A DNA stretch of 64,000 nucleotides from Escherichia coli (lineage in GTDB: Bacteria > Pseudomonadota > Gammaproteobacteria > Enterobacterales > Enterobacteriaceae): the NCBI RefSeq assembly GCF_003334405.1, contig NZ_QOWM01000008.1, one strand, 5' to 3'. Made by a program: the position numbers and the translations under genes. The notes beneath the pieces were generated by a model. The model did not search any database. It worked only from the letters and a program-made list of their open reading frames with translations, and was not told where the DNA came from. Positions 5,410 to 9,609 of the stretch are shown in pieces (within the stretch, counting starts at the first letter, position 1; each line of letters opens with the position of its first letter).

Positions 5410-7234
<1,825 letters not shown>

Positions 7235-7376
7235 AGATTAGAAATCCTTTTGAAAGCGCATTGTTATGAGTTTACGCATATGGATTCATCTGGCAAATAA
7301 AAACGCGGGAAAAGCACTGGTCAGCGTCGGGGGTGGGGGTATAATGACCATTCTGTTATTGCATAGAGTAGTTAAC

Positions 7377-7550
7377 ATGAAGCGGAGTAGAGCGGAAGTG
7401 GGGCGCTGGCGCATGCAGCGTCAGGCTAGCCGACGTAAATCGCGTTGGCTTGAGGGGCAATCGCGCCGAAATATGCGTATCCACAGCATCAGGAAGTGCA
7501 TTCTAAACAAACAGCGTAACTCGTTATTGTTTGCGATCTACAATATCTAA
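7377..7550 (+). CDS. yciY: Small basic protein YciY (57 aa)
   Basis: Sequence MKRSRAEVGRWRMQRQASRRK... within track ORF 7266-7550; TATAAT-like hexamer at 7340-7345 upstream; name from memory. Confidence 0.5.
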   Translation: MKRSRAEVGRWRMQRQASRRKSRWLEGQSRRNMRIHSIRKCILNKQRNSLLFAIYNI

Positions 7551-7604
7551 ATGTACTGGGCACCATTGCGGTGCCCAATAAGTTTACTCTTCCGTCTTTA
7601 AACT

Positions 7605-8858
7605 CTATTTTTGCGCCGATTCTTTACTGTCAGCTTTCGTTTCTAGTTCATCGTTATCGCTGAAAATACCATGACCTGAGTTCAACAACATTGAAACGAG
7701 CATATCATTATTAATCTCTTCACCATTTAAAACTCGCGCCAGAATTTCGCTGCCAAACAGTTGCGGTGAGAGAATGATATCCGGATGTACCATCTTAATC
7801 TTATTCAGGTTTTTGCTATCACTGACGGCGAGAACTGTTTTGACATCACTGCTCATATCTTTTGCCGAGAGTACAACAAACGCGTTATCTGCATCGTTAT
7901 CACTCAGCGCCAGAATGGCCCGGCAACGATCGATTCCCGCTTTCTTTAATACAGAACTGTCATTACTGTCACCGGGGATAACATCAGCATTATCGCCTAA
8001 GCGTTGCTCAAGTTGCTTGATATCATCTTCAGGCAAGTTGCTGATAACCGTTACGTTTTGTCCGCGTTGATTCAGTTGCAGGATCGTATTGATGGCGAGA
8101 ATCGAATGTCCGCAAACAATAAAATGATCTTTACGATGCATTGTATGATTGTTTCCTTTTACAAGTTTGTTGAATCCCCCGCGGATAAGCGGACCAAAAA
8201 TTGAGGTCATAGATGTGGCAAAAACGGTAATGCCGGAAATAATGACCGAAATAGTGAACAATCGTGCTGATTCAGAAACAGGGACAATATCGCCATAGCC
8301 GACGGTTGACATGGTTTCTATCGAAAAATAGAACGCGGTCATCAAACTTTCTATTCGCGGATTAAAACCTTCGCTTAAATAAAGCGCACCGTAGGTTGAG
8401 TAAAACAGTAATGTCGTGAAACTAATAAATGCAAAAATTGTCCCGGCTGCGGCGCTACTGTGGGAGAAGTCTTTGCGCAGTATCAGCAAAAACACCAGCG
8501 TAAAAATGCAAAATCCAATACTAAATTTCAGCCAGGGATAAAAATGCAGGGTGTAAATTAGCGCTATCAACAACAAAATGATACTGATTGCCCATGCGAG
8601 CTTTGCCCGGAACAGTAAGCCAATGGAGTTCAGGACAAGAAAGACGCCGAGCATAAAGAGTGGGGCGTTTGCCAGCAAGGAGAGATCCAACTCTGAAAAT
8701 GCTTTGATATGGAAAATATCAAGCAAATTGACCGACATACCATAGATTGTTTTAAAAATAAGCAATCCATTTAAAAAGACGGCCAGCGCGAGAATGTCGT
8801 GCCGAAGGGTCACCCATAAATTTGTTGCTGTTTGTTTGAATGTAGCCCAGTGACTCAC
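7605..8858 (-). CDS. kch: Voltage-gated K+ channel Kch (TVGYGD selectivity filter, C-terminal RCK domain); GTG start inferred
   Basis: ORF 7605-8876 minus; TMSTVGYGD pore motif and GHS RCK motif; 417-aa form starts at GTG 8856-8858. Confidence 0.9.
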   Translation of the reverse strand: MSHWATFKQTATNLWVTLRHDILALAVFLNGLLIFKTIYGMSVNLLDIFHIKAFSELDLSLLANAPLFMLGVFLVLNSIGLLFRAKLAWAISIILLLIALIYTLHFYPWLKFSIGFCIFTLVFLLILRKDFSHSSAAAGTIFAFISFTTLLFYSTYGALYLSEGFNPRIESLMTAFYFSIETMSTVGYGDIVPVSESARLFTISVIISGITVFATSMTSIFGPLIRGGFNKLVKGNNHTMHRKDHFIVCGHSILAINTILQLNQRGQNVTVISNLPEDDIKQLEQRLGDNADVIPGDSNDSSVLKKAGIDRCRAILALSDNDADNAFVVLSAKDMSSDVKTVLAVSDSKNLNKIKMVHPDIILSPQLFGSEILARVLNGEEINNDMLVSMLLNSGHGIFSDNDELETKADSKESAQK

Positions 8859-9157
8859 TGATACCTCTGTAACCACAATTTTGTTTAATTATCTTAGCGT
8901 GCACATTTTCTGAACATACATGCAGCGCGTGAATGTGTTAAACAATAGTAGATGACTTTATCCGCAGTAATCAAAGGATTTGAGCGAGCAACTGTACCTC
9001 AGGAAAGGTCATTTTTCCTGAATATGCTCACATCATATAAAGAAATACAGATAAAGTTATTATCTGCTTGTGGTGGTGAATGCACTGACCGGCTATAAGG
9101 AAAGGCCAAACAAGAACACGGTTGCAAAAACCGTGCCCTTAAATATTGAATCTCTAT

Positions 9158-9454
9158 TCAGAACACTTTCTTAAATGGTTTCACTGAAACGTGTTCATAG
9201 ACTCCTGCCGCTACGTACGGGTCAGCATCGGCCCAGGCCTGAGCTGCTTCCAGCGATTCAAATTCAGCAATAACGGTTGAGCCAGTAAATCCCGCAGCCC
9301 CTGGATCGTTACTGTCTACCGCTGGCATTGGACCAGCTGTCAACAAACGACCTTCATCATGCAGTAACTGTAAACGTGCTAAATGTGCCGGACGAACGGA
9401 AAGGCGTTTTTCGAGGCTATCAGCTTTGTCTTGAGCGTAAATAACATACAACAC
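9158..9454 (-). CDS. yciI: YciI-like protein (Dabb-type small protein), GTG start
   Basis: ORF 9158-9550 minus; GGAG Shine-Dalgarno 8 nt upstream of GTG at 9452-9454 gives the 98-aa form. Confidence 0.85.
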
Positions 9455-9609
9455 GGGCACAACTCCTTGTTCGGGAAAGTTGTAAAGTACGTTATTTGAA
9501 AGGGCGAAGATCTGCAACGGAAAGATGATGTCTTTGTTAAGGCCATGCATAAAGTAAGGGTAATTACGCCAAAAATGACATTTTCACTGATCCTGATCGT
9601 CTTGCCTTA

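Follow-up and report, generated by a model that had tools for sequence, protein, structure and literature searches.

The kch gene of Escherichia coli is very probably a two-product gene, in which the channel is translated from the GTG at 8858 and a soluble RCK protein from the in-frame ATG at 8141, the codon for Met240 of the channel. The internal start is already known: this very codon of kch was described in publications of 2001-2003 and later, and the site described here shows no difference from the one treated there (Jiang et al., 2001, Neuron; Kuo, Saimi and Kung, 2003, EMBO J; Lundback et al., 2009). Beyond the known Kch start, the present analysis contributes a broader comparison, across homologues, of the start codon and of the Shine-Dalgarno (SD)-like element upstream of it. 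In what follows, the window means the whole stretch of 64,000 nucleotides of E. coli DNA that was analysed (NCBI RefSeq assembly GCF_003334405.1, contig NZ_QOWM01000008.1). The features on which the argument draws are listed below in window positions, each with its basis where one applies.

8864..8867, minus strand: GAGG Shine-Dalgarno sequence of the primary GTG start, 5 nt upstream of it (upstream sequence; duplex -7.1 kcal/mol)
7605..8858, minus strand: kch coding sequence, 417 aa plus stop (ORF list and translation, RefSeq annotation of the identical gene, Pfam)
8196..8414, minus strand: Ion_trans_2 pore domain, residues 149-221, containing TVGYGD (Pfam PF07885, E = 6e-16)
8124..8195, minus strand: linker from the pore inner helix to the first RCK strand, residues 222-245, 24 aa (Pfam limits, column conservation)
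8154..8158, minus strand: SD-like AAGGA in the codons of Lys234-Gly235 (AAA GGA), at -17..-13 from the A of the ATG, with a 12-nt spacer
8139..8141, minus strand: in-frame ATG of Met240 inside kch, where the short soluble RCK product starts (sequence, SD rank, homologue column, literature)
7605..8141, minus strand: nested frame from Met240 to Lys417, 178 aa plus stop, 19,434 Da (19.4 kDa)
7764..8123, minus strand: TrkA_N/RCK Rossmann fold, residues 246-365 (Pfam PF02254, E = 1e-19; PDB 1ID1)
5774..7234, minus strand: cls, cardiolipin synthase, 486 aa, downstream of kch
9158..9550, minus strand: YciI-family protein, upstream of kch

The anatomy of kch and its domain boundaries are directly visible in the sequence and its translation. 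The annotated start is the GTG at 8858..8856 on the minus strand, and the CDS has 1254 nt in RefSeq, where the identical gene is labelled 'kch: voltage-gated potassium channel protein'. Compared with complete E. coli genomes, the kch of the window gave 100% identity, and the gene was found in 5423 of 5426 genomes. Its product is a 6TM voltage-gated-type K+ channel with the TVGYGD filter in its translation and a single C-terminal RCK/TrkA_N domain. A second in-frame GTG lies six codons 5′ of the annotated one, at 8876 on the minus strand, and opens a 423-aa ORF (7605..8876); of these two GTGs, it is the annotated one at 8858 that the GAGG sequence (8867..8864) serves. Variation in the gene is seen among other E. 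coli: an IS903B-family element interrupts kch in at least one complete genome, and truncated Kch proteins form sizeable clusters (P0009 and P0040), one example being a form of 319 aa without an RCK domain, which counts 593 sequences as members. Therefore, kch is sometimes inactivated or shortened in natural isolates.

The neighbourhood of the gene, yciI-kch-yciY-cls, is the standard E. coli order according to both the RefSeq annotation and the ORFs of the window. yciY (57 aa in RefSeq; 7377..7550, plus strand) is convergent to kch and sited between kch and cls, and its annotated start is an internal start of a longer ORF, because a 94-aa ATG ORF (7266..7550, plus strand) has the same stop. The gap of about 55 nt between the stops of kch (7605) and yciY (7550) contains a 7-bp G+C-rich inverted repeat, GGGCACC gcaat GGTGCCC (7558..7576), which lacks a T-run and was not flagged by the terminator scan; it could act as a bidirectional terminator or as an RNA-stability hairpin.

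Met240 lies in the linker between Ion_trans_2, which ends at residue 221, and TrkA_N, and is followed by HRKDHFIVCGHS in the 417-aa numbering that begins with GTG 8858. The frame that runs from Met240 to Lys417 spans the entire TrkA_N domain (246-365) together with the crystallised domain (241-393); over the latter residues its product matches PDB 1ID1 (E. coli K+ channel, RCK domain) at 100% identity. As PDB 1ID1 begins at residue 241, the crystallised RCK domain opens right after Met240. The N-terminal peptide expected of the short product is MHRKDHFIVCGHSILAINTILQLNQR. These positions agree with the initial annotation, which had assigned the ATG at 8139-8141 on the minus strand to Met-240 of a 417-aa Kch, just before the RCK domain, and had noted an AAGGA about 13-17 nt upstream and a short product of about 19 kDa. 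The sequence and the RefSeq start give the same residue number, TrkA_N begins at residue 246, six residues further on, the AAGGA is located at 8158..8154, that is, at -17..-13, and the computed mass of the 178-aa product is 19,434 Da.

That the internal start exists, that it has been removed experimentally and that an RCK product is expressed from it has been shown in the literature. The initial annotation had stated that internal initiation producing a soluble RCK fragment was described for Kch-type channels, and this is indeed reported for kch itself. In the study of Kuo et al. (2003), changing the internal ATG reportedly causes loss of the short second product of kch while the toxicity of the gain-of-function channel persists, which was taken to suggest that the channel can work in vivo without it.

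Later papers return to the same site. Roosild et al. (2009; PMC2920069) cite Kuo et al. (2003) for the removal of the internal start from Kch, and from the same source they give Kch expression and function as unaltered by this removal. They also describe the linkers of Kch-type channels as ones that 'invariably contain methionine residues', which are possible translation initiators (Roosild et al., 2009; PMC2920069). RCK expression from an internal Met is listed for Kch, MthK, and MjK1 by Kuang et al., whose sources on Kch are Jiang (2001) and Lundback (2009), and the same paper relates that electron crystallography of 2D crystals of Kch pointed to RCK domains that are free and form no ring. 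MthK is well documented to make a soluble RCK from Met107 that co-assembles into an octameric gating ring (including Roosild et al., 2009, PMC2920069), and Kong et al. are cited as a further source on this channel. The Ribo-RET study, which mapped internal starts in E. coli, does not name kch in its main text, and a full-text literature search on Kch Met240 or its internal ATG returned nothing beyond the papers cited here.

A soluble RCK fragment would also appear if full-length Kch were clipped by a protease in the exposed linker, without any internal initiation. The linker is exposed and basic, and over-expressed membrane proteins are often clipped; however, proteolysis does not predict conservation of an ATG or GTG with an SD-like element, and the short product is said to be gone once the ATG is changed. 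Moreover, the literature treats the site as a translation start that can be removed by mutation (Roosild et al., 2009, PMC2920069; Kuang et al.), and proteolysis is very unlikely as the origin of the fragment.

The E. coli SD signal at Met240, taken alone, is no better than chance. The stretch from -20 to -4 was scored against the 3′ end of 16S rRNA for all internal in-frame ATGs in the window ORFs of at least 200 aa, and an anti-SD duplex of -5.6 kcal/mol or lower was found for 25 of 397 such ATGs (6.3%); at least one ATG as strong as that of Met240 was present in 20 of the 43 ORFs. Within kch, the duplex at Met240 (-5.6 kcal/mol) is the strongest among the 25 internal in-frame ATG, GTG, and TTG codons, only the annotated start has a better SD match (-7.1 vs -5.6 kcal/mol), and the local A+U content at Met240 (0.71) is joint-highest among the same 25 codons. 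When the seven residues upstream of Met240 were resampled with synonymous codons, an equal or better SD match was obtained in 24% of cases (p_syn = 0.24). Indeed, the AAGGA of E. coli is not separable from amino-acid constraint, because the codons of Lys234-Gly235 nearly force AAGG. This motif pairs with the 3′-terminal part of the anti-SD, and its spacer becomes about 10 nt when it is aligned to the canonical GGAGG register, a spacing that exceeds the textbook optimum. The RNA around Met240 showed no conserved or unusually stable structure (z = 0.13). On the opposite strand, the antisense plus-strand ORFs at 7774..8070 and 8004..8204 were considered and judged irrelevant, as neither had any support.

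The RCK product could in principle be translated from a separate short transcript that starts at a promoter inside kch, and such a transcript is still compatible with use of the same ATG; supporting evidence for it was not found. A consensus scan for sigma-70-like sites gave none on the minus strand of kch from 8858 to 8141, and two in the whole 1.8 kb scanned against 4.4 expected by chance. An internal promoter is so improbable an origin of the product that it ranks last among the explanations considered, and initiation at Met240 within the kch message is preferred.

The comparison with homologues bears on the main rival to a two-product gene, in which Met240 is kept as an amino acid, for example for a hydrophobic contact between the linker and the RCK domain, the SD-likeness is a by-product of a basic, glycine-rich linker, and the short product is a by-product of low level or of over-expression with no selected role. 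Part of the E. coli evidence given above fits this explanation well: the Lys-Gly codons account for the SD-like motif (p_syn 0.24), about 6% of the internal ATGs in the window match its SD strength by chance, and Kch was expressed and functioned as before once the start was removed (cited by Roosild et al., 2009; PMC2920069). A protein search gave 495 Kch relatives, of which 93 were full-length and were aligned (35-89% identity). In the column of Met240, 85 of these 93 have Met, five have Val, and three have Met one residue later, so that each of the 93 homologues has a start-type codon (ATG or GTG) either in the column or next to it. The flanking linker residues 236-239 and 241 are variable among the same proteins. 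Conservation of the putative start codon of Met240 throughout the family is thus far beyond chance. The residue-conservation explanation does not account for the poor conservation of the neighbours at 236-241, the start codon apart, and the crystallised domain, which begins at 241, leaves Met240 outside.

Among the exceptions in this column, the Val variants are encoded by GTG, a valid bacterial start, in five of five cases when the DNA of each gene is inspected, and in one case the GTG is preceded by AAGGAG at a distance of 6 nt. From the Val codon usage of each gene, the chance that all would be GTG is about 0.04, or 0.06 with two related sequences counted once. Although this pattern argues against conservation of a residue, Val is a conservative substitute for Met and GTG is reached from ATG by a single transition; as this is how one mutation turns a Met codon into a Val codon, the test is weakened. 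Met is also shifted by 1-3 residues in six homologues that retain the upstream SD-like element, and a start codon fits better than a fixed structural contact because Met shifts while this element is kept.

The upstream element was followed at the DNA level in 20 Kch orthologues from a scan of a genome collection, with GC contents from 41% to 71% and taxa that include Escherichia albertii, Endozoicomonas, Photobacterium, Acetobacteraceae, Nitrospirae, and Planctomycetota. In 20 of 20, an ATG stands at the Met240 column or within three codons of it, and a purine-rich SD-like stretch precedes each. Several of these are textbook SD sites (cccAGGAGaaaaaaaATG, cccAGGAGGagaaagATG, cctAAAGGAGctgtaATG, and gcGGAGGaaaaccaagATG), and some read AGGAGG. 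The SD-like score of the orthologues falls, in the median, in the top 5% or so of codon positions in their own gene, and the ranks combine to a p of about 1e-8 with one locus taken per apparent clade. This positional enrichment is confounded with composition, because the linker is rich in Lys, Arg, Gly, and Glu, whose codons are purine-rich. A combined synonymous-codon test, which removes the confound, gave p = 0.005 without near-duplicates and p = 0.07 with related lineages collapsed, and the latter, conservative value is in line with the residue-conservation explanation. The signal of the test stems from high-GC genomes, in which rare AGG and AGA codons for Arg spell AGGAG or AGGAGG; that these rare codons of high-GC lineages fall exactly at the SD-like stretch speaks against that explanation.

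Across the Kch family, retention of the predicted start codon is therefore clear in these comparisons. Selection on the ribosome-binding site itself is suggestive and unproven, because the synonymous test weakens from p = 0.005 to 0.07 when lineages are collapsed. Conservation of Met240 merely as a residue, with a by-product as the short protein, is disfavoured and unlikely, though it is the main alternative. The statement in the initial annotation that the sequence is compatible with a separately translated RCK domain can be carried further, in that the start codon and the SD-like stretch upstream of it are kept in the 6TM-RCK Kch family.

More distant RCK channels, which are mostly 2TM channels of bacteria and archaea, carry an ATG no more than 14 codons ahead of their RCK domain in 37 of 56 cases, against an expectation of about 25-35%. 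The loci of these channels with a conserved linker Met of their own are L036, L039-L041, L049, L052, L055-L060, L065, L068, L069, and L020-L026 of the survey. In many proteobacterial and Nitrospira 2TM RCK channels, a motif 'E-x-[WFY]-R-M' was seen 10 residues ahead of the first RCK strand, and in haloarchaeal 2TM RCK channels a motif 'LG-x-M-T' was seen 11 residues ahead of it, the latter without SD-like matches. The distribution among these channels suggests that an internal start may have been kept independently in several channel subfamilies, or may have come down to them from a very old origin.

On the two-product reading, ribosomes that initiate at GTG 8858 would produce the full-length 417-aa channel subunit, and others that bind the A/U-rich, weakly structured AAGGA stretch would start at the in-frame ATG 8141 (Met240). 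Initiation at Met240 would yield a soluble protein of 178 aa and 19.4 kDa that consists of the RCK domain and the C-terminal tail. By analogy with Met107 of MthK, this free RCK might pair with a membrane-tethered RCK through the conserved dimer interface, and the single kch gene would thereby supply both halves of the cytoplasmic regulatory assembly. Co-assembly of free RCK in Kch and its physiological importance in E. coli are both inferred from this analogy and stay uncertain, because removal of the start reportedly left Kch expression and function unchanged; for the same reason, a physiological need for the short product is unproven.

MthK of Methanothermobacter, a textbook precedent, has a similar layout, as its one gene encodes a pore and one C-terminal RCK with an in-frame Met (Met107) in the linker, and its RCK is homologous to that of Kch (E about 1e-7). 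The soluble RCK from Met107 co-purifies and co-assembles with full-length subunits to form the octameric gating ring. However, MthK is an archaeal, Ca2+-gated 2TM channel whose ring is considered to depend on the soluble RCK, whereas Kch is a 6TM channel. Unlike in MthK, the channel function assayed for Kch did not depend on the internal start (Roosild et al., 2009, PMC2920069), and 2D crystals suggest free RCK domains (Kuang et al.). KtrA and TrkA, homologues of which were matched by the Kch RCK query, resemble the proposed arrangement in that a soluble RCK/KTN protein assembles beneath a K+-conducting membrane protein, but their soluble subunit has its own gene and no start is nested in the channel gene. 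GsuK and BK (Slo1) share with Kch the RCK fold and the logic of a gating ring, and need no separately translated RCK because each polypeptide carries two RCK domains. Outside channels, infB, clpB, and mrcB of E. coli likewise use an SD-assisted internal start, so that one mRNA also yields an isoform shortened at its N terminus. These sites differ from kch in that they have been confirmed by Ribo-RET at native expression, in a study whose main text does not include kch.

For genome annotation and channel biology, the site itself adds nothing new. As RefSeq annotates the 417-aa product only, analyses that start from the annotation miss the second proteoform, and with the start retained throughout the family, the soluble RCK should count when kch alleles, tags, and deletions are designed. 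Recent work has given Kch a role in the control of porin permeability and antibiotic susceptibility (PMC12669030), and another in biofilm electrical signalling. Because Kch has recently gained such measurable phenotypes, the retention across the family of a start that appears dispensable in the laboratory is now more testable. That purifying selection maintains the internal start throughout the 6TM-RCK Kch family is a serious but tentative proposal, to which we would give slightly less than even credence; it draws on the ATG or GTG of all 93 homologues, on SD-like elements that different lineages build from different codons, and on the rare Arg codons of high-GC genomes. If it is true, free RCK would have a conserved physiological role that was missed by the gain-of-function assay of 2003, and this role may lie in setting the stoichiometry or the ligand sensitivity of the regulatory assembly under conditions for which an action of Kch is now established, such as the glucose-driven control of membrane potential and porins.
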